From NCBI GenBank assembly GCA_963781755.1, contig CAWAGZ010000004.1, forward strand, positions 272,937 to 336,936: a stretch of DNA of 64,000 bases, read 5' to 3'. Origin of the DNA: an uncultured Acidobacteriota bacterium. GTDB taxonomy: Bacteria > Acidobacteriota > Thermoanaerobaculia > Multivoradales > JAGPDF01. A program made the translations under genes and the position numbers. Each line of letters begins with the position of its first letter. The first letter of the stretch is position 1. The notes below the pieces were generated by a model. That model did no database searches. It saw only the letters and a program-made list of their open reading frames with translations, and had not been told where the DNA came from. Of this stretch, positions 30,296 to 62,251 are shown in pieces.

Positions 30296-30662
30296 TTGCC
30301 TCGCCTCCCACCGAGAGACCTCCGCGCTGCGGACCGGCGAGCGAGTGCCATCGGGAGGGGCGGCCGAGGTGGCGCGGGCGCAGAGGTGACAGTCACGCCA
30401 CATCCGAGATGTGGCGTGACTGTCAGCGGCACGAGCACGGCGGAGACTGTGCCTCGGCGAGCGGGTGCCGGTGCGAACCGAAGGCGTCTCCAGGGGACAC
30501 CCAGCAGGCCAGGGTGTCCCCGGCGGAGACTGTGCCTCGGCAAGCGGGTGGCGGTGCGCACCGAAGGCGTCTCCAGGGGACACCCAGCAGGCCAGGGTGT
30601 CCCCTCGGGGAATCCACTGCCTCGCCAGTCCGCGGACTCGAGGTCTGTCATCGGGAGGGACC
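30296..30662. repeat. composite structured repeat: partial H module (30296-30365), palindrome P1 (30386-30426), two tandem H modules of about 83 bp (30441-30606) plus a 3' H tail
   Basis: P1 is GTGACAGTCACGCCACATC-CGA-GATGTGGCGTGACTGTCAG. Each H unit contains the hairpin GGGGACACCC-AGCAGGCCA-GGGTGTCCCC. The same family recurs at 45149-45625 and 48557-48725. Confidence 0.8.
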
Positions 30663-30794
30663 TTCACCGCGGCGAAGCGGCGAACGGCAGGCACAAGAAT
30701 CGCCCTGCCACTTCCCCCTTCTGTGGAAGCCTTTGCTTCTTGTGTTTGTCTTGGTCAGAAAGGTCGCGGCTTTGACAAGGGGGGGCGGGTGCCG

Positions 30795-30992
30795 TTAGCC
30801 TCTGGCGTCGCATTCGGAGAGGCCCGGTGGCGACGCCGGGCTCGGCAACCTGGGACGGACCCCCAAGGTGCCCTCCCGCCGGGGACGTTCTTCCAGCGGG
30901 GATGCGGTCGGCGGCTGCGGCCTCCGGCAACCAAGCGTCCGGCGGTCGAAATCCCGCTCTCCGATGCCGTGGCGAGCGGGATTTTCGTTTTT
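30795..30992 (+). promoter_or_regulatory. candidate SAM-binding riboswitch (S-box clan, SAM-I/IV-like core) with an intrinsic terminator in the metF leader
   Basis: The leader contains GGCAACC (30844-30850, repeated at 30925-30931) and AAGGUGCC, resembling the SAM-I/IV ligand-binding core. The hairpin CCCGCTCTCCGATGCCGTGGCGAGCGGG (30952-30980) is followed by ATTTTCGTTTTT. RBS GGGGGAAGAG and the metF ATG follow at 31014. Confidence 0.3.
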
Positions 30993-31013
30993 CGGGGGGA
31001 AGAGAATCGAGTC

Positions 31014-31967
31014 ATGAAGGTCACCGAACACCTCGAGCGGTCCTCGAGCCCGCCGATCAGCTTCGAGATCATCCCGCCGCTGCGCGGGGGCGACCTCGGT
31101 GCGCTGCTCCGGCTGACCGAGGACCTGGCGCGCTTCCGGCCGCCGTTCATCGACATCACCAGCCACGCCGCCGAGGTGGTCTACGAGGAAACGGCTTCGG
31201 GGCTGCAGCGCCGGATCAAGCGCAAGCGGCCGGGGACGATCGGGCTGTGCGCCCTGATCCAGAACAAGTACGGCGTGGACGCCGTGCCCCACGTGCTCTG
31301 CTTCGGCTTCACCCGCGAGGAGACCGAGGACTTCCTGATCGAGATGCGCTACCTCGGAATCGACAACGTCCTCGCGGTGCGCGGTGACGAGAACGACTAC
31401 CAGAAGCCGCTGCGCGACGGCAAGACGGCGAACGAGTTCGCGGTGGACCTGGTGAACCAGATCGCGGCGATGAACAGCGGCCGCTACCTCCAGGCCGACC
31501 TGCTCGACGCCGAGCCGACCGACTTCTGCGTCGGCGTCGGCGGCTACCCGGAGAAGCACTTCGAGGCGCCCAACATCGACACCGACGTCCGGCGCGCCAA
31601 GCACAAGGTGGACGCCGGGGCGAGCTACGTCGTGACCCAGATGTTCTTCGACAACCGGCACTACTTCGACTACGTCGAGCGCTGCCGCCAGGCGGGGATC
31701 ACGGTGCCGATCATTCCCGGGATCAAGATCCTGACCGCGCGGCCGCAGCTCAAGTCGATCCCGAGGAACTTCTACGTCGAGATCCCGGCCGCTCTGTCCG
31801 ACGAGGTCGAGAAGGCGCCCGACGACGCCGTGCTCGACGTCGGCGTGGAGTGGGCCGAGCGCCAGGTGCGCGACCTGCTCGACCGCGGCGCGCCGTCGGT
31901 GCACTTCTACGTCATGCAGAACGCCACCGCCGTCTCGCGCCTGATGGCGCGGCTGGGGAAGCTGTGA
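31014..31967 (+). CDS. metF: 5,10-methylenetetrahydrofolate reductase
   Basis: ISFEIIPP...CVGVGGYPEKH...YVVTQMFFD are conserved MetF motifs. Confidence 0.9.
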   Translation: MKVTEHLERSSSPPISFEIIPPLRGGDLGALLRLTEDLARFRPPFIDITSHAAEVVYEETASGLQRRIKRKRPGTIGLCALIQNKYGVDAVPHVLCFGFTREETEDFLIEMRYLGIDNVLAVRGDENDYQKPLRDGKTANEFAVDLVNQIAAMNSGRYLQADLLDAEPTDFCVGVGGYPEKHFEAPNIDTDVRRAKHKVDAGASYVVTQMFFDNRHYFDYVERCRQAGITVPIIPGIKILTARPQLKSIPRNFYVEIPAALSDEVEKAPDDAVLDVGVEWAERQVRDLLDRGAPSVHFYVMQNATAVSRLMARLGKL

Positions 31968-31983
31968 ATCGGGAGGCCGGAAG

Positions 31984-33648
31984 ATGAGACCCGCACCGCT
32001 CTGGAACGCCCTGCTGCTGGCCGGCACCGCGGCGCTCGCCGCCGCTCCTCCGGGAGCGGCCGGCGCGACCGCCGGCCCGTCGCCCGGGCAGGTCGTCGCG
32101 GGTCCCACCGCGACCGCGGTCGCGACGCCGCCGCTGGCGAGCTTCCAGGCCGTACTGCAGCCCGAGCCGTGGCCGAGCGAGAAGGCCGAGGACCGCGTCA
32201 ACCCGCTGGCGGACGAGCCCGACGAGGGGCGCCGCGGCACCTGGAACCGCCTCGGGGTCCCGGAGGATCCCCTCGCCGGCCGCAGCCTCGCCGCCGGCGC
32301 CGAGACCCCGACGCCGCTGTTCGACTTCGCGGGGACAGATCAGCAGCACGGCTGCAGTTGCGCTCCGCCCGACACCGTCGGCGACGTCGGACCGAACCAC
32401 TACGTGCAGATGGTCAACGCCACCAAGATCCGGATCTTCGACAAGACGGGGGCGCCGGTCACCGGAGTGATCGACCTGGCGAGCTTCTGGGCGTCGGGCA
32501 ACTGCCACAGCGATCTGGGCGACCCGGTCGTCGTCTACGACTGGCTCGCCGACCGCTGGCTCCTGGCGCAGTTCGCGACCCCTCAGCAGTTCTGCTTCGC
32601 GGTGTCGCAGACCGCCGACCCGACGGGGTCCTACTTCGTCTACGAGTTCCCGGCCTCGAACTTCCCGGACTACTTCAAGATCGGCGTCTGGCCCGACGCC
32701 TTCTACGTCGCGGCCAACGAGAGTCCGTACAGCGCCTGGGCGTTCGAGCGCTCGAAGATGCTCGTGGGACAGACCGCGCAGTCGCTCCAGGCGTCGGTTT
32801 CCGGCGACAACTTCCTGATGCCGGTGGACTTCAACGGCCACGCGGCGCCGCCGGCCGGGACCCCGGGCTACTTCTACACCTTCCTCGACGACTCCTTCCA
32901 CGGCGGAGTGGACCGGATCCAGCTCGGCTCCTTCCAGGTCGATTGGGCGACGCCGGGCAACTCGAGCTGGAGCAGCACCGACCTGCCGATCGCGTCGTTC
33001 ACCTACACCGTGTGCGGCTTCTTCAACTTCAACTGCGCGCCGCAGGCCGGGACGACGCAGAAGTTGGACGTGGTCTCGGAGTGGCCGATGTACCGCTTCA
33101 CCTACCGCCGCTTCGACGACCACGAGAGCCTGCTCGGCAACTTCACCGTCGCCACCGGCTCGCCGACGATCGCCGCCCCGCGCTGGTTCGAGCTGCGGCG
33201 GACCTCGGGCGCTTGGAGCCTGTACCAGGAGGGGACGTACGTGCCGTCGGGCGGCGTCTTCCGCTTCATGGGCTCGATCGCCCAGGACGCGAGCGGCGAC
33301 ATCGCGCTCGGCTTCACCGCCTCGAGCTCCACGATCCACCCCCAGATCCGCTACGCCACCCGGCTGGCTTCCGATCCGCTCGGCACCCTGGGGTCCGAGG
33401 TCACGATGACCTCCGTCCTGGTCAACGGCTCGCAGACCGGCTCGAACCGCTGGGGCGACTACTCGGCGATGGCGATCGACCCGGCCGACGACTGCACCTT
33501 CTGGTACACCAACGAGTACTACCCGGTGAACAGCTCGGGATCCTGGAAGACGCGGGTCGGCTCCTTCCGGATCCCCGGCTGCGGGGCGATCTTCATCGAC
33601 GGGTTCGAGTCCGGCGACGCCAGCCGCTGGAGCGTGACCCTTCCCTGA
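31984..33648 (+). CDS. secreted hypothetical protein (signal peptide) ending in the C-terminal tail FIDGFESGDASRWSVTLP
   Basis: A 554-aa ORF with an N-terminal signal peptide (MRPAPLWNALLLAGTAALAAA). Its C-terminal 18 aa are shared with the proteins ending at 42186 (+) and 42345 (-). Confidence 0.7.
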   Translation: MRPAPLWNALLLAGTAALAAAPPGAAGATAGPSPGQVVAGPTATAVATPPLASFQAVLQPEPWPSEKAEDRVNPLADEPDEGRRGTWNRLGVPEDPLAGRSLAAGAETPTPLFDFAGTDQQHGCSCAPPDTVGDVGPNHYVQMVNATKIRIFDKTGAPVTGVIDLASFWASGNCHSDLGDPVVVYDWLADRWLLAQFATPQQFCFAVSQTADPTGSYFVYEFPASNFPDYFKIGVWPDAFYVAANESPYSAWAFERSKMLVGQTAQSLQASVSGDNFLMPVDFNGHAAPPAGTPGYFYTFLDDSFHGGVDRIQLGSFQVDWATPGNSSWSSTDLPIASFTYTVCGFFNFNCAPQAGTTQKLDVVSEWPMYRFTYRRFDDHESLLGNFTVATGSPTIAAPRWFELRRTSGAWSLYQEGTYVPSGGVFRFMGSIAQDASGDIALGFTASSSTIHPQIRYATRLASDPLGTLGSEVTMTSVLVNGSQTGSNRWGDYSAMAIDPADDCTFWYTNEYYPVNSSGSWKTRVGSFRIPGCGAIFIDGFESGDASRWSVTLP

Positions 33649-33664
33649 CGCGGACGATGCGACC

Positions 33665-37186
<3,522 letters not shown>

Positions 37187-37372
37187 CCCAGTAGGGGTGG
37201 CAATCGCCGCGAAATAGCGCCGCGCACAGCTTCAGGCATCGGCTTCCGACTTCCCTGGGGCCCCCTAATGCCCTCGCCTACTCCAGTTTCAAGCGTGGAG
37301 CCAGGCTATGGCTCTCTCGCGTGGGCACTCCTCCCCGCGCCGACTGATGGCCGTGGGAGCTTCGAACCCGTG

Positions 37373-39439
37373 CTACTGCGGCGGCTGGCAGGCCCCTGGA
37401 TTCCCGTCGAAGACATCCGCTTCAAAGTTGTCGATCGAGTTCTCACCTTCCGCGAAGCTCTGGCCCGCGGGCTTCCATCCCTTGAAATACGCGACCGAAG
37501 TGCTCGGCGGCGCGTCGGAAAGAACTACTCCAGTGAGTACGGGCTCAGAGTTTACGTAGACGTCTGCGCTCGGTGGGGTCGTCTGATAGTTCACGAGAAG
37601 CCGGACATCCGTCTTGCCAAACGCCCAAGCCCCCACGCCCGTTGTAGCGTATGTTGTCGTTTGGTTGTTGTGAACCGTCTCCAGCGAAATCTCGAGCGGA
37701 GGTGCCGGGAACCTAGTACTCTGAGGATACCCGACAACTCTTATCAAGTCGTTGACGACGGTGCCCGCTGAGAGTCCTATCTCGAGGTGATTCAGTCCAG
37801 GCGTAATAACGCCACGAGTGCTTACCGAAGTCTGCTGCGACACGTTTGATAGCGCCAACTTGCCCCGCCATGTCGATTGTCCAGCGAGCCCTCTCGGTAC
37901 TGCGCTTCCCATCCAGATTCCCGTCTGGGCGTCTTGATTCCCCCAGGTCTCGGCGTTGTTGCCCGTCCATCCTGTACCGCCTCCCGCGTCTGGGAGCTTT
38001 CCATTCAGCCCTATGTTGCCCAACTCGCCGTTGAAGGCGTCTCTCGCTACAAAGGTCGGAAGCTCTTGAAACATCCGGCATGCCACGTAGTCCTTCTGCC
38101 ATTTCGCGCCTGCGCCACTTCCATTCGTGTTCCAGTCAACCCCACTCTTCATCTCGTTCATGATCTCAAAGATCATGTTGCCAACTCCACCCACCTCCTT
38201 TGCCACGAGCTCAAGATAGGCGTTCTGAATCGGAACAATCCTACTGTCGTTGAGAAACGCGTCAAGAGTATTACATTGATTCCCGTCGTTCTCAGAGTCG
38301 AAGAGTTCGATGCTCCCGCAGTCGTTCGCTTGGCAGCAAGCGCCATTCAGGTCGCCCCCATCGAGGAAGTCTATAGTCGGGAGATTCGCGTCCCTGTTGT
38401 ACGGGCTACTCGGCCACTGCCCAGGGCAATTGATGTCGTTGTCTATGAGGCCGTGTTTGTCGAAAAGGGAAAGCTGCACGACGATACCTCGGTCGGCGGC
38501 AAGTTGAGCGAACTCACGGAGTCGGGCAAAGAACAATGGGTTTAGCCCTGAGATGCTGAGGTCATAGTCGGGATAGCTTCCGGAGAACGGGGTAAGGCCC
38601 TCCGCGTGCGGGCTCGGACAAACCGCTCTTCCTGTCCACTGCTCGATCGCCCAGATTCGGGTCAGGTTTGCTCTATAGGTACGAAGCGTATCTAGGAATC
38701 CATCGTTAGCCCCAGTTCGCAGCAGAATGGCCCTATTCCCTGCTGCAAGAGCTCCCATGTGGCTAAATCCAATCAGCGTCGCTGGCTCCCCATTCCAAAA
38801 GAACACCTCCGTATGTGGAAAACTGATGTCGGGACTGATTCCCCGAGTCAGTGTACCGTTGGGTGACATGGGCGCATTCATTGCTAACCCAGCGCAGCCG
38901 GAGTCATGGATGTAGGCCATCATGTCTCGGGCACCCGGCCAGGGAGTGCCGTCGGTCTGCCAGGTGTTCCATCCGCCTATCGTGAGACCTAGCTTTGCCT
39001 TGTCAGCTAGGATGGCTTCATAGTGCTCGTAGTTCTCGAATCCGCGCGGCTTGGAGTGGTTCTGGATCGCTGAGCAAATCTCCCCAATGTAGCCTTTCTG
39101 CTTTTCATTCCGCGTCGCGCCGGTGAAGCTTGCGTCGTCGGAGTAGATCTTCGGCTTCTGGTCGGAACTCGTGTTATTGACGTAGCAGCGCGCTTGCACG
39201 AACGTATTATGAACCTTGTCGATATGGTAGGAGCTTGCTCCTACGTCCTGAGATCGAGCAAGTGCTTGGAATGGTTGTTGGTCGCAGGGATCACCGAATA
39301 CGACGGGGTGCTGGTTTCCTGAGATTATCCCACGCTGAGCGAGCGCCACTGGATTGATGCAGATGAGCGAGGCACCTAGTGCAAGCAGGAGTCTCCTATT
39401 GAGGCGCATGTTCTTGCGGACATGCGTCGGTTCTCGCAT
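37373..39439 (-). CDS. secreted glycoside hydrolase, GH5-like (cellulase family)
   Basis: A signal peptide (MREPTHVRKNMRLNRRLLLALGASLICINPVALA) follows a strong RBS (AAGGGAGGG) before ATG 39439. IFEIMNE resembles the GH5 catalytic acid/base NEP motif. The gene is about 50% GC in a roughly 70% GC background. Confidence 0.6.
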   Translation of the reverse strand: MREPTHVRKNMRLNRRLLLALGASLICINPVALAQRGIISGNQHPVVFGDPCDQQPFQALARSQDVGASSYHIDKVHNTFVQARCYVNNTSSDQKPKIYSDDASFTGATRNEKQKGYIGEICSAIQNHSKPRGFENYEHYEAILADKAKLGLTIGGWNTWQTDGTPWPGARDMMAYIHDSGCAGLAMNAPMSPNGTLTRGISPDISFPHTEVFFWNGEPATLIGFSHMGALAAGNRAILLRTGANDGFLDTLRTYRANLTRIWAIEQWTGRAVCPSPHAEGLTPFSGSYPDYDLSISGLNPLFFARLREFAQLAADRGIVVQLSLFDKHGLIDNDINCPGQWPSSPYNRDANLPTIDFLDGGDLNGACCQANDCGSIELFDSENDGNQCNTLDAFLNDSRIVPIQNAYLELVAKEVGGVGNMIFEIMNEMKSGVDWNTNGSGAGAKWQKDYVACRMFQELPTFVARDAFNGELGNIGLNGKLPDAGGGTGWTGNNAETWGNQDAQTGIWMGSAVPRGLAGQSTWRGKLALSNVSQQTSVSTRGVITPGLNHLEIGLSAGTVVNDLIRVVGYPQSTRFPAPPLEISLETVHNNQTTTYATTGVGAWAFGKTDVRLLVNYQTTPPSADVYVNSEPVLTGVVLSDAPPSTSVAYFKGWKPAGQSFAEGENSIDNFEADVFDGNPGACQPPQ

Positions 39440-39669
39440 GGAAACCCTCCCTTTCCCGGTTGCTGTCACGGCGGGACGGCCGCGTCAGCTTCAGGCAGTC
39501 CAAGCAGAGTCGCTCAGGCAGTCCACCGCCTTTCCGTGCCAGTGGGCAACCGCCCGTTGGGCGGGCTAATCGCCGCCTGTTCGGGCGGTCAGGTCTTCTT
39601 GGCACGCCGGTGTAAAGTGACTTTCGCCCAACGTCTCCTCCTCTGGCTGGTTCAAGTGGGGGCTGCCTA

Positions 39670-42186
39670 GTGAGAGTTCTCGGAATGGCTTCTGCGCTGC
39701 GGCTCCTGCCCCTGTACATCGCGATTCCCTGGGCAGGTCCCGCCCTCTCACAGCCAATACCGCTCGATTATTCCGAGCGCCAGGTGAATACATACACGCC
39801 CTGTGATCAGTGGCGGCCCGCTGTGGCGTCGGACCCGGACGGGTCGTTCGTCGTGGCCTGGACGAGCTGCGGGTCGCTGGGCAACGACGACTCCTTCAGC
39901 AGCGTGCAGGTGCGGCGCTTTGGCGCGGACGGCAACCCTCTGGATGCGGCAGACTTTCAGGTCAACATGTACACCGCCTACGATCAGCGCTACCCCTCGG
40001 TCGCGAGCGATGCGGAGGGGAACTTCGTCGTCGTGTGGGAGAGCTACGGATCGGCCGGTGGCGACGACGACGGGTACAGCATCCAGGCGCGGAGATTCGC
40101 GGCCGACGGGACTCCACTCGACGCCGCGGAATTCCAGGTCAACGCCTACACGACGAACCTCCAGCAGCGGCCGAAGGTCGCCATGGACCCCGAAGGGAAC
40201 TTCGTCGTCGTCTGGGACAGCTGGGGCTCGCCGACCGATTCGTCGGCCTACAGTGTCCAGGCGCGTAGGTTCGGCGCGGACGGAGCTCCGCTCGAGCCCA
40301 CGGAGTTTCAGGTCAACACGTTCACGTCCAACACTCAATTCACGCCGTCGGTGGGCGCCGACTTCGACGGCGGCTTCGTCGTCGGCTGGTTCAGTCACCA
40401 CCTGTGCGGAGGAGTCGAGTGCACGAGCATCGAAGCGCGCCGGTACCGCCGTGACGGCACCCCTGCGGACCCGGCCGAGTTCCGCGTCGACACTCCTGCG
40501 GGCAATGGCGTTGGCTCGCCGACGGTCGGCGCCGATCCCGCGGGCGAGTTCGTGCTTGCCTGGGAGATCACTCAACCGATCACCTTCCGCGAGAGCATCG
40601 GTGCGCGTCGATACCGCACCGACGGCACTCCAGTCGATCTCTTCGACTTCGAAGTCAGCTCCTACACCACCTGGGCGCAGGACCGGCCCTCGGTCTCCGC
40701 GGCCGCCAACGGCGATTTCGTGGTGGCATGGAGCAGCTACGGATCGAGCGGAGACGACCCCGGATTCAGCGTCCAGGGCCGCCGGTACCGTCCGGACGGC
40801 CCTTCTGTGGACCCGGGAGAGTTCCAGCTCAACGCCTACACCACGGGGAACCAGGTCCGGCCGTCCGTCTCACGGCGGCTGAACGGCGACTTCGTGGTCG
40901 CCTGGCAGAGCTACGGGTCGTTCGGCGACGACTCGAGCTACTGGAGCATCCAGGAGCGCCGCTTCGGGCGGCCGACGATCGAGGTGACGTCCAGCTCCGG
41001 AGCGACAGGCGGCCCGGACTGCAAGCTTCGCGACGCAATCGCGGCAGCGAATGCCGGTCAACCGGTCGGAGGCTGCCCGGGCGGAAACGAGGGGGCGGAA
41101 ATCGAGCTTCCGCCGGGGGCGACGATCGTGCTCACCGTCGCCGACAACGGGTCGAACGGACTTCCGCTGATCGCGAGGCCGATCACGGTCCGGGGTCGCG
41201 GCGCGACGATCACCCGGGACCCCGGGGTCGCCTGTCCGGTGGAACCGGAGTTCCGGATCTTCGAGGTGGTCGCGGGAGGTATCCTCGAGCTCCAGGACGT
41301 GACCGTGGCGCGCGGTTGCATCTCCAGTGGGAGTGGCGGAGCGGTGCTCGCGAGCGGCGGCACCGTTCTGCTGACCCGCGCTTCGATCGTGGGCAGCGAG
41401 GCGGGCTCCGACGGAGGCGGGGTCGCGGTGGTCGACGGCAGCTTGTTCGCGGCCGGCGCCACGGTGCGCGGTAACCTCGCAGCCGGGTCGGGAGGTGGCA
41501 TCTCGGTGTCGGGACTGGAAGGCCGCCTGCTGCTGCGTCGCTCGACGCTCTCTGGCAACGCCGCGACCTTCGGCGGTGGGCTCTCGCATGCGGCAGGCAC
41601 CCGGGCCTTGATTCGGACGTCGACGCTCTCCGGCAATGCGGCGCTGGGGTCCGGCGGTGGGATCGAGGCGGCTGGCTCCGGAGCGGGAAGCCGGGTGGTG
41701 CTCGACTTCTCCACGGTTACCGGGAATTTCGCCTCGGTCGGAGGTGGCTTGGACCTGGGATCCGGGACGTTCGATCTCCACGGCAGCCTGGTCGGCGAGA
41801 GCGCCTCGGGTGGAGACTGTGCCGCCGGCACCGGTGTCCTGGTCGCCACCGGTGCCAACCTCGACACCGACGGAACCTGCACGGCTCTGGCGGGGGGCCA
41901 CGTGTCGACGGTGGTGTCGCTCGACCTGGGTCCACTCCGCGACAACGGCGGATTCGTCTCAACCCGTGCCCCGCTCGGGGGCAGTCCTTCCCTCGACGCG
42001 GCGCCCGACTGTGCGAACCGCTCCGGCGCGGCTGCCCTCACCGACGAGCGAGGCTACCCGCGGCCGACCGACGACGACGGGGACGGCGCGCCCGCGTGCG
42101 ATCTGGGCGCGGTCGAGCGCGGACCGGTGTTCCTCGACGGCTTCGAGTCGGGCGATTTATCGGCCTGGTCCGGCGCGGGTCCCTGA
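39670..42186 (+). CDS. large secreted protein: seven tandem repeats of about 57 aa, then a CSLREA-type parallel beta-helix domain; ends in the tail FLDGFESGDLSAWSGAGP
   Basis: It has a signal peptide. The repeats follow the pattern FQVNxYTxxxQxxPSVAxDxxGNFVVxWxSxGSxGxDxxxxSxQxRRFxADGxP. The CKLRDAIAAAN motif resembles CSLREA. GGGxxxxG beta-helix repeats follow. Confidence 0.7.
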   Translation: MRVLGMASALRLLPLYIAIPWAGPALSQPIPLDYSERQVNTYTPCDQWRPAVASDPDGSFVVAWTSCGSLGNDDSFSSVQVRRFGADGNPLDAADFQVNMYTAYDQRYPSVASDAEGNFVVVWESYGSAGGDDDGYSIQARRFAADGTPLDAAEFQVNAYTTNLQQRPKVAMDPEGNFVVVWDSWGSPTDSSAYSVQARRFGADGAPLEPTEFQVNTFTSNTQFTPSVGADFDGGFVVGWFSHHLCGGVECTSIEARRYRRDGTPADPAEFRVDTPAGNGVGSPTVGADPAGEFVLAWEITQPITFRESIGARRYRTDGTPVDLFDFEVSSYTTWAQDRPSVSAAANGDFVVAWSSYGSSGDDPGFSVQGRRYRPDGPSVDPGEFQLNAYTTGNQVRPSVSRRLNGDFVVAWQSYGSFGDDSSYWSIQERRFGRPTIEVTSSSGATGGPDCKLRDAIAAANAGQPVGGCPGGNEGAEIELPPGATIVLTVADNGSNGLPLIARPITVRGRGATITRDPGVACPVEPEFRIFEVVAGGILELQDVTVARGCISSGSGGAVLASGGTVLLTRASIVGSEAGSDGGGVAVVDGSLFAAGATVRGNLAAGSGGGISVSGLEGRLLLRRSTLSGNAATFGGGLSHAAGTRALIRTSTLSGNAALGSGGGIEAAGSGAGSRVVLDFSTVTGNFASVGGGLDLGSGTFDLHGSLVGESASGGDCAAGTGVLVATGANLDTDGTCTALAGGHVSTVVSLDLGPLRDNGGFVSTRAPLGGSPSLDAAPDCANRSGAAALTDERGYPRPTDDDGDGAPACDLGAVERGPVFLDGFESGDLSAWSGAGP

Positions 42187-42344
42187 GCCCGCGGAGGGCG
42201 GCCGACCGGCTCTCCTGCTCGAGACGAAAAAGGCCGCGCGCCGCGCCGGACCGGAGGAGGGGAACCGGTGCGGCGCGGCGCGCGGCGGCCTGCCCCCGGC
42301 CGCCCGAGAGGAGAGGGCGGACCGGGGTCCAGAAGCCTGCGGGG

Positions 42345-44144
42345 TCAGGGCGTGGTCGAGGACCAGTTCGCCGTGCTGCCGCGCTCGAAGCCGTCGTCGA
42401 AGATCAGCCGGCACGAGGCCGGGAGCGCCGTGTCGCCGGCGAGCTCGACGATCTGGGTGCGCCACGTGTTGGTCGCGGGCGCCAGCTCGGCGACCGACCA
42501 GAGCGTGTTGCACGTCCAGTCGTGGGCGACGCCCATGTAGTCGCCCCAGCGGTTGCGGCCCTGGTAGTAGACGTTGTAGGTGCCGCTGCCCCCGGCGGTG
42601 GCCCAGAACGGACCGCTGGTGTCGACGAGGAAGTTGGTGTAGAGCTTGAAGGCGGCCGAGGGGTAAGCGGTGTCCCCCGAGTAGGTCATCGGCACGCCGA
42701 CCATCGGGTTGTTGAACAGGTCGCTCCCGACCAGCCCGACCGCCGGGTAGTAGTAGTCGAGCCCGCCGGTGAAGTAGTTGATGGCCCGGTCCTGGACGTG
42801 GCTGTCGGTGTTGATCTTGCTGACGTAGAAGCCCGAGTTGCTGCTGTCGTTGGAGTTGACGCTGAAGTAGAGCTTGTGGTTGTCGTAGGCCGCGGTCAGG
42901 GCGCCGGCGTAGAAGGTCTCGATGTCGTCGAGGACCGTGCCGGGCTGGCGCGCCAGCGGCGGGCTCGCGTAGGCGTCGACGGTCACCGAATACGGGTCGA
43001 GGTGCGGCGCGTTGCCGCGGTCGCCGGTCATCTCCCACAGGCAGGCCTGGTTGCCGCTGGAGTTGAAAGTGTTGACGAAGTAGGTGGCGCCGATCGAGCT
43101 TCCCGTGTAAGGGACGGCCGGCTGGAGCTCACGGGCGAGCGGGTTGCCGGCATTGGGCCAGTGCAGGCCCCAGAAGATCCAGCCGGCGGTGCCGGTGTCG
43201 GTGAAGATCGTCGGCCGGACGCTGTAGACGATGGCGTGCTTGAAGCCGCCGGCCCAGTAGTACTCGTTGCCGGTGAAGTAGAAGCCGAAATCGTCGGCCG
43301 ACATCCCCGAGTAGTCGATCCACGTGTCGGTGTTGTACCCGTCGTAGAAGTAGTAGAGCGACCAGGCGCCGAGCGGGTTGTCGGTGTGCGAGATGGCGAC
43401 GAAGGCATAGCTCTTCTGGGCGTTCGAGTCGCTGGCCAGCGCCAGCAGGACGAACTTGTTGTGGAACGGGTCGTAGATCACGCGCGGATCGAAGACCTTG
43501 CCGTTGGCGAACGACCAGGGGGACGGCAGGTACGGCAGCAGCGGCGCGAACAGGCCGTTCTCGAGGTCGTTGTAGGAGCGCTCGAGGCCGCCGTCCTTGG
43601 TGTAGATCGTCAGCCCGGAGTTGACCGACTCGACGATGTACTTCGGTCCCACGGCGATCACCGGGTCGGGCGGGATCCAGCCGGTCGCGGACTGGCCGGC
43701 GAAGGAGCGCAGGATGTCGCCGGCCGCCTGGGGCGCGGCCGGAGCGTTCGGAGCGTTCGGGTCGTCTGGGTCGGCCAGCGGCGCCGGAACGGGCGCTTCG
43801 CTCTCGACCGCGTCGGAGCTGGCGAAGAAGTCGCCCAGGCCGCCGCCGAGCTCGCCCTCGTCGTCTTCGACGTCGTTGGAGGAGCCCTGGGCGTGACCGC
43901 GCAGGACGCCGGGGATCCGGTCGGGGTCGCCGCCGGGGACGTCCGAGAGCCGGACGACGACCGGGCCGATCATCTGGAGCGAGCCACCCGGAGCGGCCGA
44001 AGCCTCGCCGGTGGCGGCGGCGGGCGCCTCGCCGGGACGGGGCGTCTCCTGCGGGGGGCGCGGAGGGGTGGAGCCGAACGCCGGCGCCGCGAGGGCGCAG
44101 GCGAGGGCCAGCGGGAGCAGCTTCACGTGCTTTGCGGTGGTCAT
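42345..44144 (-). CDS. secreted hypothetical protein (signal peptide MTTAKHVKLLPLALACALAAPAFG) ending in the tail IFDDGFERGSTANWSSTTP
   Basis: About 600 aa from ATG 44144. The N-terminal 324 aa of ORF 42345..45119 are Arg-rich out-of-frame overlap with the next gene and are rejected. Confidence 0.7.
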   Translation of the reverse strand: MTTAKHVKLLPLALACALAAPAFGSTPPRPPQETPRPGEAPAAATGEASAAPGGSLQMIGPVVVRLSDVPGGDPDRIPGVLRGHAQGSSNDVEDDEGELGGGLGDFFASSDAVESEAPVPAPLADPDDPNAPNAPAAPQAAGDILRSFAGQSATGWIPPDPVIAVGPKYIVESVNSGLTIYTKDGGLERSYNDLENGLFAPLLPYLPSPWSFANGKVFDPRVIYDPFHNKFVLLALASDSNAQKSYAFVAISHTDNPLGAWSLYYFYDGYNTDTWIDYSGMSADDFGFYFTGNEYYWAGGFKHAIVYSVRPTIFTDTGTAGWIFWGLHWPNAGNPLARELQPAVPYTGSSIGATYFVNTFNSSGNQACLWEMTGDRGNAPHLDPYSVTVDAYASPPLARQPGTVLDDIETFYAGALTAAYDNHKLYFSVNSNDSSNSGFYVSKINTDSHVQDRAINYFTGGLDYYYPAVGLVGSDLFNNPMVGVPMTYSGDTAYPSAAFKLYTNFLVDTSGPFWATAGGSGTYNVYYQGRNRWGDYMGVAHDWTCNTLWSVAELAPATNTWRTQIVELAGDTALPASCRLIFDDGFERGSTANWSSTTP

Positions 44145-44146
44145 GG

Positions 44147-45058
44147 TCACTCTCCTGGAGTGGGATCGGGACATCTGTCGAGCCATGCGGAGGTCTGGAC
44201 GGTGAGCGGGTCGCGCGGGCGGCCGTCGTCGAGACGCGCGTCGGCCAGCGGCCGGAGCGAGATCGCCTCGGCGACGTCGAGGCCGGAGGCGACGCGGCCG
44301 ACGACCAGCCACTTGCCCAACCGGGTCGGATGGTCGGCGAGCAGGATCGAGAGCTCGAGCCGGGCGCGGGTCGGCGAAGCGGGGACGAGCGCGACGGCGC
44401 CGCGCAGCGGCGGCTGCGAGTCGAGCCCGGGGCGGAAGCGGTAGCCGAGTGCTTCGAGGATCTCCTGCCGGCTGGTGCCGACCAGGAACGACGGGTCGTA
44501 GTCCTTCTCGAAGCGCTCGCGCCAGGCGGCGAGCCGGGGCGTCGCCGGCTCCTCGGCCTCCCCGTGGTCGTTGTCTTCGGCACGCAGGTCCCCGGACTGC
44601 TGCCCGGGGCTCTCGCGCTCGGTCTCGGGTGCGGTTTCGACTTCGGGTTTGCGGCGCGTGGCGGCGCGCTGGGCGGCGGGGAGGAGCTCGAACTGCAGGA
44701 CGTTCATCGCCTCGCCGGCGTCGGCGATCCGGCTCCGGTCGAGACCGAGCGCGGCGGCGTCGTTGACCAGCTCGACGGTCGAGGAGGCGTCCGCCGGCCG
44801 CGGCTCGAGGCGCAGCTCGAGGTGCGGCCGCTCGAAGTCGAAAGCCAGTCCGGCGAAGCTCGATCCGTCGCCCTGCTCGAGCGCCGCGATGGCCTCGGGT
44901 GACGCCGCGCGGTCGAAGCGCAGGACGATCGCCCCGGCGGTGGTCTCCAACCGCAGGCAGGGGTCGGGCGCCACGGCGGCGGGTTGCCGCCCGGCGCGCG
45001 CCGAGGCGCAGCCCGCGAGCAAGATCGCGCTCCACACCATCAGGATTCGTCGGTCCAT
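44147..45058 (-). CDS. putative lipoprotein with a cyclophilin-like (peptidyl-prolyl isomerase-like) C-terminal segment
   Basis: Signal peptide and lipobox (ILLAGCASA) are present. The C-terminal GKWLVVGRVASGLDVAEAI resembles the cyclophilin FGKV..GMDVV motif. It lies immediately upstream of, and co-directional with, the tagged secreted protein gene. Confidence 0.5.
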   Translation of the reverse strand: MDRRILMVWSAILLAGCASARAGRQPAAVAPDPCLRLETTAGAIVLRFDRAASPEAIAALEQGDGSSFAGLAFDFERPHLELRLEPRPADASSTVELVNDAAALGLDRSRIADAGEAMNVLQFELLPAAQRAATRRKPEVETAPETERESPGQQSGDLRAEDNDHGEAEEPATPRLAAWRERFEKDYDPSFLVGTSRQEILEALGYRFRPGLDSQPPLRGAVALVPASPTRARLELSILLADHPTRLGKWLVVGRVASGLDVAEAISLRPLADARLDDGRPRDPLTVQTSAWLDRCPDPTPGE

Positions 45059-45148
45059 TCGCACTCTCCACTTCCTGCCAGTCACCTAGGAGACGGGAAC
45101 CGCGGGGAAAAGCGGACACGGGGCGGCGAAGGTGGCGCCGAGGCTCAG

Positions 45149-45625
45149 GTGACAGTTACGCCACATCTCCGATGTGGCGTAACTGTCACCTCTCGAGCGC
45201 GACGCAGGCCCTGCCTCGGCGAGCGTGTGCCGGTGCGCACCGAAGGCGTCTCCAGGGGACACCCAGCAAGCCAGGGTGTCCCCTCGGGGAATCTCCCGCC
45301 TCGCCGGTCAGCGAACTCCAGGTCTGTCATCGGGAGGGGCGGCCTGGAAAAGGGGGACAGGCACCCATTTCCCACGGTTCAAGAATCTCGGCTGGGAGCG
45401 CTGCCGGGACTCGGAAATTGGTGCCTGTCCCCATTTTTCGGTCCTTCGTTCGATTGGATTGCGCGGCGCTCGGAGGCCAGGCCTCCACGTTGGCTGGCTC
45501 CTCCCGACGACAGACCTCGGCTTGGCGCACCGGCGAGGCGGGAGATTCCCCCAGGGGACATGCAGGCTTGCTGCGTGTCCCCTCATGACGCCTTCGTCCC
45601 GCCGCGGCACCCGCCGGCTCGCGCC
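45149..45625. repeat. composite structured repeat: palindrome P2 (45149-45189), H module (45215-45345) and an inverted H module (about 45470-45625)
   Basis: P2 has a perfect 19-bp inverted repeat, GTGACAGTTACGCCACATC-TCCG-GATGTGGCGTAACTGTCAC. H2 and H4 are mutually inverted copies, each containing the GGGGACAY.C...G.RTGTCCCC hairpin. Confidence 0.8.
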
Positions 45626-45645
45626 ACGGCTAGAATCGAGCTTCC

Positions 45646-46122
45646 TTGGCCGCAGAGACCCTTGCGCCTTCGGCGCCCGCGCCCGGTCTCCGGACTTCCG
45701 TGGCCGCGCTCGCGGCACTGGCCCGGGAATCGCCGATCGAGGTCGTGGTGACCACCGGCTCGATGGCGCCGGCGATCGCCGCCGGCGCGCGGGTCGAGGT
45801 CGCGGGGCAGCGGCGCTACCGGCGCGGAGACGTCGTCGTCTTCGCCAACTCGGCCGGGGATCTGGTCGTCCACCGGCTGCTCGGCCGCCGGCGCGTCCGG
45901 GGCTCGGTCCACCTGGTCACCCGCGGCGACGCCGCGCCGCGCGCCGACGGGCTGGTGCCGCCCGAGCGCGTCGTCGGCCGCGTCGTGGGCGGGGAGTGCG
46001 CGCCGCGGGTCGCCGACGTGCCGGCCGGCGACCGGCTGCGCGCCGCCGGGCGATTCCTCGGCTACCTGGCCGGTCGCGTGCGCGCGCGCGTCGCCGACCG
46101 GCGCGAACCGGGAGAGACGTGA
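45646..46122 (+). CDS. S26/S24-family (signal peptidase I / LexA-like) serine peptidase-like protein
   Basis: VVVTTGSMAPAIAAGARVEV matches the SGSMxP(T/A) Ser-nucleophile motif of signal peptidase I-type peptidases. It is the first gene of the operon, and the 4-bp overlap with the next gene implies translational coupling. Confidence 0.6.
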   Translation: MAAETLAPSAPAPGLRTSVAALAALARESPIEVVVTTGSMAPAIAAGARVEVAGQRRYRRGDVVVFANSAGDLVVHRLLGRRRVRGSVHLVTRGDAAPRADGLVPPERVVGRVVGGECAPRVADVPAGDRLRAAGRFLGYLAGRVRARVADRREPGET

Positions 46123-47087
46123 CCTTCGCCGCGGCGTTCCTGCGCGAGCCGGACCTGTTCCCGGCGCGCCCGGCGGGGGAGCCCTGGGGCACGGCGAGCC
46201 TGGCCGTGGACGCGATCGCCGGGCCGTACCTCTTCCTCGGGCTCTCGGAGGCGCAGCGCGAAGTGCTCGCGGCGCACTTCGGCGCGCGCGTCGTTGTCGG
46301 AGACCCGCCCGGGGACGCGACGCCGATCGTCGCCTTCCGGGTCGCCGCGGAGGAGCTGGTGCCGATCGTCGAGGAGCCGTGGGAGCTCCAGATGGACCTC
46401 GAACCGGCGCCGACCTGCGTGCGCTGGGCGACGCGGCGCTCCTTCGGCCGTCTCGACTGGCGCCCCGAGATCGCCGCCGCGCTCTGGCTGCCGGAGCCGG
46501 AGACCGGGACGCCGGACGCCCGCGCCGCCGAGGAGTGGATCGGGACCTTCGGCAACGCGCTGCGCATCGCCATGGCCCACCGCCTGCTCGCCGCCGGCGG
46601 CGTCCTGCTGCACAGCGCCGGGGTCGCCCGCGAGGGGCGCGGCTACGTCTTCTTCGGCCGCTCGGGGGCGGGCAAGTCCACGCTCGCGCGCCTGTCGCAC
46701 GAAGCCGGCCTCGAGGTGCTCTCCGACGAGCTCAACGCTCTCTACGAGCGCGACGGCGCGCCGGTCGTCGAGCGCCTCCCGTTCGCCGGCGACTTCGGCC
46801 GCGACCGGGAGAGCGTGGGCCTGCCCGGCGACGCCGCCGGACGGCGCGTCTTCCCGCTCGCGGCGCTGCTCGCGCTCGCCCAGGGCCGGCCGCCGCGCCG
46901 CGAGGCGCTGCCCCGTGGCCGGGCGGTGGCCGAGCTGGCGGCGTGCGCGCCGTTCGTCAACGTCGATCCGCACCGCTCGCCGCGCCTGCTCGAGACGCTC
47001 GAGCGGCTGACCGCGCGCTTCCCGGTCGAGCGCCTGACGTTCGATCTCGACGCCGGCTTCTGGAGTATCCTGACCGCGAACCGATGA
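46119..47087 (+). CDS. HprK-related kinase (P-loop; HprK-related kinase A/B family)
   Basis: GTG 46119 overlaps the upstream stop. The Walker A motif GRSGAGKST lies in an HPr-kinase C-terminal-like fold context (LLHSAGVAREGRGYVFFGRSGAGKSTLA). Confidence 0.7.
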   Translation: MTFAAAFLREPDLFPARPAGEPWGTASLAVDAIAGPYLFLGLSEAQREVLAAHFGARVVVGDPPGDATPIVAFRVAAEELVPIVEEPWELQMDLEPAPTCVRWATRRSFGRLDWRPEIAAALWLPEPETGTPDARAAEEWIGTFGNALRIAMAHRLLAAGGVLLHSAGVAREGRGYVFFGRSGAGKSTLARLSHEAGLEVLSDELNALYERDGAPVVERLPFAGDFGRDRESVGLPGDAAGRRVFPLAALLALAQGRPPRREALPRGRAVAELAACAPFVNVDPHRSPRLLETLERLTARFPVERLTFDLDAGFWSILTANR

Positions 47088-47111
47088 GAGCTGTCCGATG
47101 AGAGTCCGGCG

Positions 47112-47432
47112 ATGACCCCGGCGCCGTCCGGGAGCCCCCGATACCGCCGTGTCGCCGACGTGCGCTACCGCGTCCTCGACGGCGAGGCGGTGGTGCTGCG
47201 CCAGCGCGCGGCCGAGGTGCTGGGCCTGAACCGCGTCGGCTCGCGGGTGCTCGAGCTGGTGGACGGCGAGACCGGCGAACCGGAGCTGCTCGACCGGCTG
47301 GCCGACGAGTTCGAGGTCGAGCGGGCGACGCTCGAGGCGGACGTCCGCGCTTTTCTCGACGAGCTGGTCGCCGCGGGCGTGCTCGAGCGGCTGCCCGCGG
47401 CCCCGGGGGAGAGCGCGGAGACGGAGCGATGA
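47112..47432 (+). CDS. PqqD-family peptide chaperone (RiPP recognition element)
   Basis: A 106-aa protein (VLDGEAVVL...LNRVGSRVLELVDGETGEPELLDRLADEFEVERATLEADVRAFLDELVAAGVL) typical of PqqD/RRE proteins. Confidence 0.75.
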   Translation: MTPAPSGSPRYRRVADVRYRVLDGEAVVLRQRAAEVLGLNRVGSRVLELVDGETGEPELLDRLADEFEVERATLEADVRAFLDELVAAGVLERLPAAPGESAETER

Positions 47433-48548
47433 GCGCCGGCGGCGGCGAGGGCGCGGCGAGCTACGGCGAGAAGCTGGCGACCTTCTGGCGCGACAACCGG
47501 CTGTTCACGGTTCTGTTCGAGCTGACCTACCGCTGCAACCTCGACTGCTCGTTCTGCTACAACGACCTCGGCCTGGCCGGCCGGCCGCTGACGCTGGCGC
47601 GCTACCGCGAGGTGCTCGACGAGCTGGCCGTCCTGGGCACGATGCACCTGGCCCTGTCGGGCGGCGAGCCGCTGGCGCACCCGGACTTCTTCGCCATCGG
47701 ATCGCACGCCCGCGAGCGCGGCTTCGTGGTCCGGATCAAGTCGAACGGCCATGCCCTGCGCGGCGCCCTGGCGCGCCGGTTGCGCGACGAGGTCGACCCC
47801 TACCTGATCGAGATCAGCATCCACGGCGCGCACGCGGCGACCCACGACCGCCAGACCCGGGTGCCCGGGAGCTTCGAGCGTCTGCTGGCCAACCTCGAGG
47901 AGCTCAATGCGCTCGGGATCCGGGTGCAGCTCAACTCGACATTGACCGCTTGGAACGAGGCCGAGATCGGGGAGCTCTTCGCCCTGACCGACCGTCTGGG
48001 GCTGCCGCTCCAGGTGGACCCGGAGGTCACCCCGCGCGACGACGGCGACCGCACGCCGCTCGACATCGCTGCCCTCGCGCGCGGGCATCCGCCGGCTGTT
48101 CGAGCTGCAGCGCGAGCGCGTGGCGCGGGCTGCGGCCGAGGGCGCGCCGCCGCCGCCGCCGGTGGGCAAGCAGGCCGACTCCGCCGGCACGCCGGTTTCG
48201 GCGGGCAAGTACTGCGGCGCGGGCTCCTCGCACCTGACGGTGGATCCCTACGGCAACGTCTACCCGTGCGTCCAGTGGCGCCGGCCGGTGGGCAACCTCC
48301 ACGAGACGACCGTCGCCGAGATCTGGTCGTCGTCGCGCGGCCTCGCCGAGGTGCGCGCGGTCGAGGGGGAGGTCCTGGCGAACGTCGAGGCGCTGGGGCC
48401 GGACGGACGCGACCTCGGCCTCTGCCCGGGGCTGGCCGAGCAGCTCACCGGGCACGCGGCGCGCATCTACCCGGCGGCGGCGGAGCGGCTCGAGCTACGG
48501 CGCGACGTGGCGCGCGCGGGGCACGCCAAGCTGCCGATCGTGCGCTGA
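47429..48548 (+). CDS. radical SAM / SPASM-domain peptide-modifying enzyme, interrupted by a +1 frameshift near 48083
   Basis: The radical SAM core is in frame 2 (CNLDCSFCYN, GGEPL). The SPASM domain is in frame 0 (CGAGSSHLTVDPYGNVYPC) and ends at 48548. Removing one G from the GGG at about 48083 gives a continuous 373-aa protein. ATG 47429 overlaps the PqqD stop. Confidence 0.75.
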
Positions 48549-48556
48549 GGGCGAAG

Positions 48557-48595
48557 GTGACAGTTACGTCACAGACATAACTGTCACCTTTTTCG
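48557..48595 (+). terminator. intrinsic terminator formed by palindrome P3 plus a T-run
   Basis: GTGACAGTTACGTCACAGACATAACTGTCAC is followed by CTTTTTC, 9 bp after the radical SAM stop. Confidence 0.5.
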
Positions 48596-48725
48596 GGCCA
48601 CCAACGCCGGGTGCCGGTGCGAACCGAAGGCGTCTCCAGGGGACACGCAGCAAGCCAGCATGTCCCCTCGGGGAATCTCGCGCCTCGCCAGTCCGCGGAG
48701 CCGCGCTCTTTCACCGGCAGGCGAG
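48557..48725. repeat. composite structured repeat: palindrome P3 plus H module H3
   Basis: H3 (48600-48725) carries the hairpin GGGGACACGC-AGCAAGCCA-GCATGTCCCC and a conserved tail (CGGGGAATCTCGCGCCTCGCCAGTC). Confidence 0.8.
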
Positions 48726-49101
48726 GCGGGCGCCCTGCCGCTTTCCACTTCTCTTGCTGCTCTGGTCTTCTTCTGGAAAGGGAGTACCCGGTGGGCACCC
48801 GCCGGCGAAGCCAGGCGGCGCCCTTCGGCGGGTTGGTGGGGGTGGGAGGGTGGGCTGCAGGGCGCCGGGACCCGGGCCGCAGCGATCTACGAAGACACCA
48901 CCAGATTACAACCGCCCCCCTGGCCGAAGGCTTTTCCCGGGGAGCACAACGCCGCAACGGCTTCGAGCTTCTCGCGGTAGACGATGCGGGGCGCTTGGTA
49001 GCGGCCCCGCTCCGGTCTTCCCGGCTCGGTGCTCGCGTCGGCTTCGGTCTCGGGTCGGCGGTCGGTCATCGAGTCAGTCACCATTCGAAGGATGCATCAC
49101 G

Positions 49102-61618: not shown

Positions 61619-61714
61619 CTGTCACGCACCCGAAGCCGGGTTCTTCCGGCGGCGGGACGCGCTGGATCCGGCGTTTTCCGGACGTGACAGTCACGTCCGT
61701 GACGTAACTGTCAC
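61595..61714. repeat. two palindromes of the GTGACAGTYACG family (P5 61595-61625, P6 61684-61714) between convergent genes
   Basis: P5 is GTGACAGTTACGTC-TGT-GACGTAACTGTCAC and P6 is GTGACAGTCACGTC-CGT-GACGTAACTGTCAC. Each overlaps a stop codon, of the RND gene (+) and of 61691..62251 (-). Confidence 0.8.
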
Positions 61715-62251
61715 CCGGCGGGAGAGCCACCAGCCGGCGACCAGGGCGGCGAGGGACCAGCCGACGACCTGGTCACAGAGTTGCGAAGCCAGGTACTCGC
61801 TGGGGAAGCCGTACCAGTTCCAGTACGAGAAGTCGATCGAGAGCGAGGCGAAGGCGCCGAGCGCGGCGCCGAAGGCCAGGCGGCGCCCCCAGCCGATCGG
61901 GCCCACCGCCGCCAGGACGAACGCCGCGAGCAGGCCGGCCAGGACGCTGGTCGTGGCTTCGATCGCCACGGAGCGGCCGAAGTCGAACGGCTCGCTGGCG
62001 GGAGTGATCGCCAGGATGCCGCGCGGCCGCGTGCGAAAGGCCTCCTTCATCTTCACCGGATCGGTTTCGTACGGGAAGAAGTAGAAGCCGGCCTCGGGGA
62101 CGCCGGCGGCGAGGCCGTCGAGGACGGTCGCCTGGTCGGGAAGCGCGGAGACGCCCGCTTCCCCCAGAGGCAGCAGCTCGTGGGAGATGAAGTTCCAGAC
62201 GAACACTGTCAGGCCGGCGAGCACGCCGGCGACCACCACGCGCGTTCTCAT
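61691..62251 (-). CDS. hypothetical small membrane protein
   Basis: About 186 aa from ATG 62251 (MRTRVVVAGVLAGLTVFVW), with four hydrophobic segments. Its C-terminus (RRVTVTSRT) is encoded by palindrome P6. Confidence 0.5.
   Translation of the reverse strand: MRTRVVVAGVLAGLTVFVWNFISHELLPLGEAGVSALPDQATVLDGLAAGVPEAGFYFFPYETDPVKMKEAFRTRPRGILAITPASEPFDFGRSVAIEATTSVLAGLLAAFVLAAVGPIGWGRRLAFGAALGAFASLSIDFSYWNWYGFPSEYLASQLCDQVVGWSLAALVAGWWLSRRVTVTSRT

Follow-up and report, generated by a model that had tools for sequence, protein, structure and literature searches.

Modular non-coding repeats between the genes of a Thermoanaerobaculia chromosome, with a palindrome whose arms recur in other phyla

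What are the palindromes and hairpin modules that recur between genes in this stretch of a Thermoanaerobaculia chromosome, and does any of them encode an RNA, move, or serve the genes beside it? We analyzed 64,000 nt (the window; contig CAWAGZ010000004.1, 70.6% G+C), in which a reading of the letters alone (the sequence-only reading) had described a family of composite, structured, non-coding intergenic repeats resembling repetitive extragenic palindromes (REP) or miniature inverted-repeat transposable elements (MITEs), built from a palindrome, P, and a hairpin module, H. That description holds: six P and five H copies were mapped. The elements are not simple MITEs, however. They are best read as mosaic intergenic repeats, a kind already known, and it is this particular family that is new. 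The explanation we favor, with about even confidence, is a mosaic of separable modules comparable to bacterial interspersed mosaic elements (BIMEs) and BOX elements, in which P is a REP-type hairpin at gene 3' ends.

P is recognized by its half-site, GTGACAGTYACG. With up to one mismatch allowed, the window contains 13 half-sites versus 0.37 expected from shuffled sequences, and all 13 lie within palindromes, with no singletons. The palindromes are present at all five loci where they had been reported; we letter these A (P1), B (P2), C (P3), D (P4) and E (P5 and P6). Each arm is 12 nt, (AG)GTGACAGTYACG ... CGTRACTGTCAC(CT), and the loop, of 7 or 17 nt, is free. Two copies take a long form (41 nt, 19-bp stem): P1 (30386-30426), with loop CGA, and P2 (45149-45189), with a perfect stem. 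The other four are short (31 nt, 12-14-bp stem). P3 (48557-48587) has a 14-bp stem with one C.A pair, P4 (54030-54060) is the same as P3 over 33 nt, and P5 (61595-61625), whose 14-bp stem is perfect, forms an inverted doublet with P6 (61684-61714) across a 58-nt spacer. The foot of the hairpin reads (A)AG followed by GTGAC. Position 9 is C-G in some copies and T-A in others, and C.A and U.G occur as intermediates. Mismatches fall on either arm, with both C.A and U.G on a given strand, and therefore indicate no consistent strand. The distances between P starts are 14763, 3408, 5473, 7565 and 89 nt, and the sequence between modules is itself repeated, in keeping with the earlier statement that this is not a CRISPR array.

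Five of the six P copies are located 0-90 nt past stop codons, and two of these overlap the stop. P1 starts 91 nt past the stop of a (+) gene ending at 30295, P3 starts 9 nt past the stop codon of a radical-SAM gene, and P4 lies 26 nt 3' of the stop codon of a SnoaL-like gene (-). P5 encodes the end (..RVTVTSVT) and TAA stop of an AcrB-type gene, and P6 the C-terminus and stop (..RRVTVTSRT) of a small membrane ORF (open reading frame) at 61691-62251 (-). The palindrome thus supplies the last 7-8 residues and the stops of both an efflux pump and a small membrane protein, and these gene ends have therefore been reshaped by the repeat. P2 occupies a divergent intergenic region and is ~90 nt away from where gene 44147-45085 (-) starts. 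A T run, CCTTTTTCGG, directly 3' of P3 gives this copy the canonical shape of an intrinsic terminator on the (+) strand; P1, P4, P5 and P6 have no T run.

Six-codon mini-ORFs precede the two long palindromes, at 30368-30388 (GTG GCG CGG GCG CAG AGG TGA) and 45131-45151 (GTG GCG CCG AGG CTC AGG TGA). Both end at a TGA within the first arm of P1 or P2, with a G-rich stretch resembling a Shine-Dalgarno element upstream (GGGAGGGG at locus A, only GGGGCGG at locus B). In DNA of 70% G+C they are probably without meaning.

How constant is P among relatives? The best homologues of MetF (31014-31967) come from Thermoanaerobaculia (Acidobacteriota); one, 98% identical, is encoded on a 3.87-Mb ENA contig. 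Look-ups of this homologue and of a TetR-type regulator were used to retrieve orthologous DNA. Two strains are ~95% identical to the window (L013, L014, L016, L149 and L150, all ENA), a JGI relative is ~82-85% identical in coding regions (L017 and L018), and five loci are from more distant Thermoanaerobaculia (L140-L144). L016 retains every P at loci C, D and E, including the spacing of the P5-P6 doublet. In L017 and L018, P at loci C and D keeps 24 of 24 arm bases, while the loops are altered from TCACAGA to TCTGTGG or CCATGGA and the intergenic DNA around them is ~50% identical or unalignable. Because the arm bases are kept while loops and neighboring DNA diverge, the arms have been held constant. 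P is followed by CTTTTCC in L017. No P was found in the five more distant loci, the orthologous site after the radical-SAM gene included. Inversion of the P5-P6 segment between strains was considered and rejected, as the spacer aligns in neither orientation.

P was then sought more widely, in metagenome and viral contigs, with a gapped pattern of both arms. The motif is present in at least 120 metagenome contigs of 38-72% G+C, and the pattern matches 11 viral contigs. Among the matches listed, exact look-ups of neighboring proteins gave the labels Anaerolineales, Omnitrophota, Alphaproteobacteria and Clostridia, which makes at least four phyla besides Acidobacteriota. The counts that follow rest on the 90 unique metagenome copies among those matches. 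An ORF of at least 300 nt ends no more than 150 nt upstream in 74% of them. A is enriched before P and T after it (3.6-3.7 observed versus 2.3 expected), and 38% of copies have both an A run and a T run. Outside the searched pattern, the palindrome usually extends to AAG-P-CTT, which matches P1-P4 of the window, and the foot takes the form (A)AG-GTGAC in 50-58% of copies. The spacer between the arms ranges from 3 to 21 nt in this wider class. Comparison of G.U with C.A pairs as a test of strand was set aside for these copies because the search pattern biases it. A literature search for the half-sites returned primers and unrelated sequences only; BLAST of the common P form found no match in a plasmid collection and only partial, chance-level matches in a phage collection.

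Two ideas about the surroundings of P did not hold. A common neighboring gene (a REP-associated tyrosine transposase, RAYT; another transposase; or a regulator) did not emerge, since clustering of neighbors gave orthologous loci only and their Pfam matches were to housekeeping genes. An outer GGGGAC..GTCCCC stem around P, considered as a general link between P and H, is present at just 2-3 of ~135 P sites.

Some contigs carry P-like words in other settings. On an Omnitrophota contig (L124, 441-8826), five P-like palindromes occur within 9 kb, each between housekeeping genes (Dus, RecG, FabH), and three of them are nested inside a longer hairpin, GGGGACGGTTCTGTTTTTTA...TAAAAAACAGAACCGTCCCC. A few plasmid- or phage-like contigs carry the 11-mer GTGACWGTCAC as several sites or as tandem arrays with 11-12-bp spacing (L117, at 2912-3550; L060, L077, L112 and L136; L091, L100, L080 and L106). 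In many cases a gene 30-40 nt away encodes a small basic protein, M.DP.DT.T..L....RGRP..G.AMT.AERKRAQRAR.., with no Pfam family. Array and protein may be an operator or centromere with its binding protein. This may represent a different use of the same word.

The second component, H, is present as described, but it measures ~130 bp and not 110, and the similarity runs on into a further module, T, that the sequence-only reading had not listed (30679-30769 and 48713-48789). Five H modules at three loci were identified with nhmmer, with self-BLAST E-values of 1e-14 to 1e-46 between copies. H1 (30449-30521, +) is truncated to the 5' part plus the hairpin and is the first unit of a tandem duplication. 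H2 (30532-30660, +) and H3 (45212-45340, +) are full copies with stem type CC/GG. H4 (45497-45621, -) is full and inverted, with stem type GC/GCA and an outer helix disrupted by a change of TCTCC to CATGA. H5 (48597-48723, +), also full and of stem type GC/GCA, belongs to a convergent gene pair, with the terminator-like P3 on one side of it and the T and U modules on the other. The two stem variants are as originally described: three window copies carry GGGGACACCC/GGGTGTCCCC and two carry GGGGACACGC/GCATGTCCCC. So are the tandem duplication (30438-30521 versus 30521-30604, 83 nt, 96.4% identity) and the mutually inverted pair, H3 and H4, which is 81-84.5% complementary. Within H, a conserved core of 55 nt is able to form an interrupted 21-bp hairpin.

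Additional modules complete the elements. T is ~95 bp and pyrimidine-rich; at 30679-30769 (+) it contains GGCAGG..CCTGCC and CTTCC..GGAAG hairpins and TTGTCT-like hexamer repeats, and it ends at the metF -35 element TTGACA. A diverged copy occupies 48713-48789 (+). The outer ends of T are its least conserved part, the hexamer repeats vary, and its folding is not stronger than that of shuffled sequences (z from -0.7 to +1.1). The U module (48798-48881, +) consists of a hairpin and a G-rich run, GGTGGGGGTGGGAGGGTGGG (48835-48854), whose four G runs with 1-nt loops make a strong G-quadruplex motif. In L013, L014 and L015 an inverted copy of U (opposite strand, 6362-6447) adjoins a pair of T modules, one inverted and one direct (T_inv/T_dir). 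The convergent H3 (+) and H4 (-) are separated by a strong, bidirectional terminator-like hairpin (45352-45432; z = -5.0 on one strand and -4.9 on the other), which is preceded by an A run, followed by a T run, and found only at locus B. At the left end of the locus A composite (element A) lies a partial inverted H 3' tail (30302-30341, -; CCTCCCACCGAGAGACCT...; weak, E = 0.29). It is connected to P by a linker, GGGAGGGGCGGCCGAGGTGGCGCGGGCGCAGAG (30353-30385, +), that is 100% identical in L001, L149 and L150. All six arrays, from the window and relatives, begin with P, continue with one to three copies of H and close with T or a terminator.

The modules are all non-coding. The lengths of the tandem units are not divisible by 3, and a small Phe/Val-rich or Cys-rich peptide encoded by T was rejected: the copies are shifted by a 1-nt register and no frame is conserved. 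A scan of the whole window against Rfam 15 gave nothing relevant to the repeats at gathering scores, and permissive E-values on loci A, B and C added only miRNA-like hairpin noise.

Where do H and T occur? They were found only in the window, the two ENA strains and one further contig, L001. Exact H-core patterns matched one locus among GTDB species genomes, none in JGI metagenomes and none in IMG/VR, where four matches to a 17-mer proved to be chance. L001 (CAWCIP010000027.1) is a 292-kb contig of a metagenome-assembled genome labelled 'uncultured Solirubrobacterales'. Its PolA matches, at 100% identity, a protein encoded by the contigs that carry L013 and L014, with the next-best homologues in Thermoanaerobaculia. 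Because of this identity, L001 belongs to the same organism as the Thermoanaerobaculia relative; the contig or its Solirubrobacterales label appears to be mis-assigned. A jump of the composite across phyla was dropped on the same ground, as the PolA identity leaves no evidence of transfer. H and T are thus confined to one species-level Thermoanaerobaculia lineage, versus the broad distribution of P.

Within that lineage the composites vary. The one at the polA locus of L001 consists of T_inv, H, linker, P, truncated H, H and T_dir, and fills a 720-nt gap between divergent genes. It is 85% identical to element A over 418 nt, with unrelated flanks (upstream of polA, not metF), and the junction from truncated to full H is common to both. 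L013 and L014 differ by one 127-nt unit, comprising P and the 5' part of H, and the number of units varies among locus A of the window, L001, L013 and L014. The elements also sit at breaks of synteny. In relatives, element A is replaced by 3.4 kb with a PKD gene, flanked by U and an 'empty' T_inv/T_dir pair, and a 0.7-kb window-specific segment (an indel) abuts P6. Copy number appears low: 64 kb contain three composite loci, and a further 22 kb contain one.

The favored mosaic-repeat explanation would account for these observations as follows. At gene 3' ends, P most likely forms a hairpin, either within the transcript or within single-stranded DNA, and would end or protect transcripts; where it overlaps a gene end, it would bring its own stop codons. 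Constancy of the arms could reflect a putative hairpin-recognizing factor or hairpin-templated correction. Slippage or unequal recombination between direct repeats inside an array would lengthen or shorten it, and dispersed copies could be substrates for rearrangement between loci.

The closest parallels are REP and BIME elements of Enterobacteria and Pseudomonas (the REP/RAYT and REPIN systems). Like these, P is a conserved intergenic palindrome of 31-41 nt that mostly occupies gene 3' ends, stands alone or in an inverted doublet, joins other motifs in mosaics and is kept at orthologous sites. By analogy, a role in termination or in protecting mRNA 3' ends is plausible for P. Unlike REP, it lacks a GTAG tetranucleotide at the hairpin foot, in window and metagenome copies alike. 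Its arm is common to several phyla, whereas REP families are normally species- or genus-specific, and H and T have no REP counterpart. The BOX elements of Streptococcus pneumoniae (boxA, boxB in variable number, boxC) are likewise modular and non-coding, with a fixed order, a varying number of internal units, strong predicted secondary structure and no encoded transposase. They differ in that there is no sequence relationship, copy number is low here, and P, H and T also occur separately.

Other known systems share some of the properties of P. Intrinsic terminators are also stable hairpins past stop codons, and P3 and the ~38% of listed metagenome copies noted above have A and T runs beside the hairpin. 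Their stems, however, are not sequence-conserved between loci or phyla, and most P copies here lack a U tract. DNA uptake sequences (DUS of Neisseria, USS of Pasteurellaceae) similarly present a conserved 10-12-nt word as an inverted pair forming a hairpin just 3' of genes. Those words are frequent as single copies inside genes, whereas in 64 kb the P half-site never occurs outside a palindrome, and this identity was rejected.

Several observations weigh against the mosaic-repeat explanation. The canonical U tract is found at P3 only, and P2 sits in a 5' (divergent) region. The H core is conserved far above its flanks (92% identity among seven paralogues, versus 59% for the 5' flank and 77% for the 3' part), which suggests that the core sequence itself has a function, for example in an RNA or as the binding site of a protein, and is left unexplained if the repeats are purely structural or selfish; gene conversion could be another source of this pattern. 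No target-site duplication and no clean empty site was seen, the differences between strains being replacements of 0.7-3.4 kb. RAYT, the defining partner of REP, was not found, by a Pfam scan of 38 window ORFs, in a reading that took in ~64 kb of this genome and ~150 kb of its relatives. Finally, the identity of the 12-14-nt arm across phyla is beyond chance, which implies a putative shared recognition factor or horizontal spread.

The alternative that survives best is that H and T form a family of small RNA (sRNA) genes, transcribed in the H-sense direction (+ for H1, H2, H3 and H5, - for H4) and ending at T or at hairpin 45352-45432, with P as a 5' boundary or processing hairpin and a functional core hairpin and loop. 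We consider this possible, if unlikely. Each of the six H arrays has a terminator-like module (T or hairpin 45352-45432) on its 3' side in the H-sense direction, and the convergent H3 and H4 share the bidirectional one. If H is transcribed, this arrangement favors the H-sense strand, opposite to that proposed in the sequence-only reading. Over 11 H copies from the window, strains and paralogues, pairing in the interrupted 21-pair helix reaches 94% on the H-sense strand, and 17 G.U cells would be mismatches on the other. The core is subject to some constraint or to gene conversion, and an H-sense sRNA therefore stays a live rival. Yet no promoter-like site was found upstream of any H, where the 5' flank is the least conserved part, and the single-sequence folds computed are unremarkable for this base composition (z -0.5 to -1.9). 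T, as noted, folds like shuffled sequence. The outer helix of H4 is broken without a compensating change, H5 is located behind the terminator-shaped P3, and Rfam has no match.

Covariation does not help the sRNA reading either. Among the 21 helix pairs, one changes on both sides (CG in six sequences, GC in four), and the same four GC sequences carry C.A at the neighboring pair. The two changes on one haplotype therefore represent one historical event. The observed covariation score is reached by 16 of 500 shuffles. The compensatory change is thus not established as proof of a conserved RNA.

A second alternative makes P the recognition element of a novel trans-acting system, either a HUH-type RAYT or IS200/IS605-like enzyme that spreads horizontally, or a hairpin-binding protein. 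The system would be common to Acidobacteriota, Chloroflexota, Omnitrophota, Clostridia, Alphaproteobacteria and some viruses, and would here be joined to a new H-sense sRNA with the 55-nt H core. We regard this as unlikely.

We give still less weight to P as a double-stranded protein site (an operator, a partition or nucleoid site, or a recombination site). Each arm is a near-dyad, GTGAC-N-GTYAC, and P would then be a pair of adjacent dimer sites instead of a hairpin. Conservation of the arm around a free loop fits this, as do arm centers 20 bp (short form) or 30 bp (long form) apart, about two and three helical turns. The tandem GTGACWGTCAC arrays near genes for small basic proteins, and the position of P at the borders of strain-specific segments, also point this way. 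Spacers of 3-21 nt in the wider class, however, would not be tolerated by a rigid site. The internal dyad does not survive in the T variant, GTGACAGTTAC, that is common here, and the compensatory change of C-G to T-A at position 9 preserves pairing between arms, not a fixed half-site. The post-stop position and the A and T runs suit a transcript hairpin, and no neighboring gene is shared. This reading is improbable.

Are the composites instead non-autonomous transposons, that is, MITEs with inverted T modules as terminal repeats and a transposase elsewhere in the genome? The polA-locus copy is bounded by T_inv and T_dir, an 'empty' T_inv/T_dir pair in L013 forms a long hairpin (z = -4.4), and composites 85% identical occur at unrelated loci. 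Like the Correia elements of Neisseria and ERIC/IRU, the repeats are small, structured, dispersed and non-coding, they may overlap gene ends and give stops, and some composite copies have inverted terminal modules. Yet target-site duplications, proposed earlier as a check on mobility, were not found at the T ends, and the composites show no clean insertion polymorphism. Window copies have one T or none, and, as described above, the outer ends of T are variable and strain differences are complex replacements. Paralogues differ by 15% and strains by 5%, and there has therefore been no recent movement. No transposase or integrase family was matched by Pfam among the 38 window ORFs scanned. We find a MITE origin quite improbable.

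The sequence-only reading itself took the C-G to G-C swap in the H stem as evidence for selection on an RNA hairpin, and from C.A versus G.U pairs assigned it to the minus strand for (+) copies and the plus strand for the inverted copy. In its favor, where the H-sense strand of the second stem type has C.A, the antisense strand has G.U, and the 10-bp core is paired slightly more often on the antisense strand (97.3% versus 94.5%). The outer 11 pairs favor the H-sense strand (93.5% versus 79.6%), as do all 21 pairs taken together (94.0% versus 88.5%). Strand evidence for H, as read from these alignments, conflicts. Given that the swap is one substitution on one haplotype, that the terminator-like modules face the opposite way and that P mismatches show no consistent strand, neither the argument from compensation nor the strand assignment stood up, and this reading is very improbable. 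An assembly artefact (collapsed or duplicated sequence), toward which the high similarity of some copies is the only pointer, has a negligible chance: the copies differ by 4-20%, have unique flanks and recur at orthologous positions in three independent assemblies (ENA and JGI), which also settles the earlier doubt about collapsed copies.

In this genome, then, the mosaic repeats appear to mark transcript ends, and they mark places of rearrangement among close strains. Long ORFs running through the elements should not be annotated as genes. Among the matches listed, the P arm is identical over 12-14 nt across several phyla and lies nearly always just 3' of genes. If it is true that a common factor recognizes P, the REP/RAYT idea would extend beyond a single species. 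The main interest for follow-up is this cross-phylum conservation of the P arm, rather than the H hairpin.

The genes around the repeats are as follows. A glycosyltransferase cluster occupies the left half of the window. The right half contains metF and metH, a ScmC/PqqD/radical-SAM cluster, a 1596-aa C25 peptidase, and an efflux operon for TetR, an outer-membrane protein, HlyD and AcrB. The segment 45646-48548 is a peptide-maturation-type cluster with a small ORF (weak match to S24/S26 peptidases), a ScmC-family protein, a PqqD-like protein and a radical-SAM/SPASM enzyme. All relatives retain this cluster, which is convergent with the gene for the C25 (gingipain-type) peptidase of 1596 aa.

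A 5-kb segment, 37184-42225, begins directly after the metH stop codon and is missing in both close strains. No P or H was found at its borders. Its large ORFs, 37373-39469 (-) and 39670-42186 (+), have no Pfam match, and the second contains internal repeats with a period of ~174-177 nt (40018-40317 and 40661-40932).

Upstream of metF, a promoter-like pair, TTGACA / TAGCCT (30772-30801), precedes a weak match to the S-adenosylmethionine (SAM)-I riboswitch, RF00162 (30807-30908; 23.5 bits versus a gathering score of 44.4, E = 0.011). On the 3' side of this match lies a terminator hairpin with a T run, GAAATCCCGCTC...GAGCGGGATTTTCGTTTTT (30948-30992). The leader is kept in L013 from 30810 onward, with TTGACA / TACGCT upstream. 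The metF leader thus resembles a divergent SAM riboswitch whose expression platform is a terminator.

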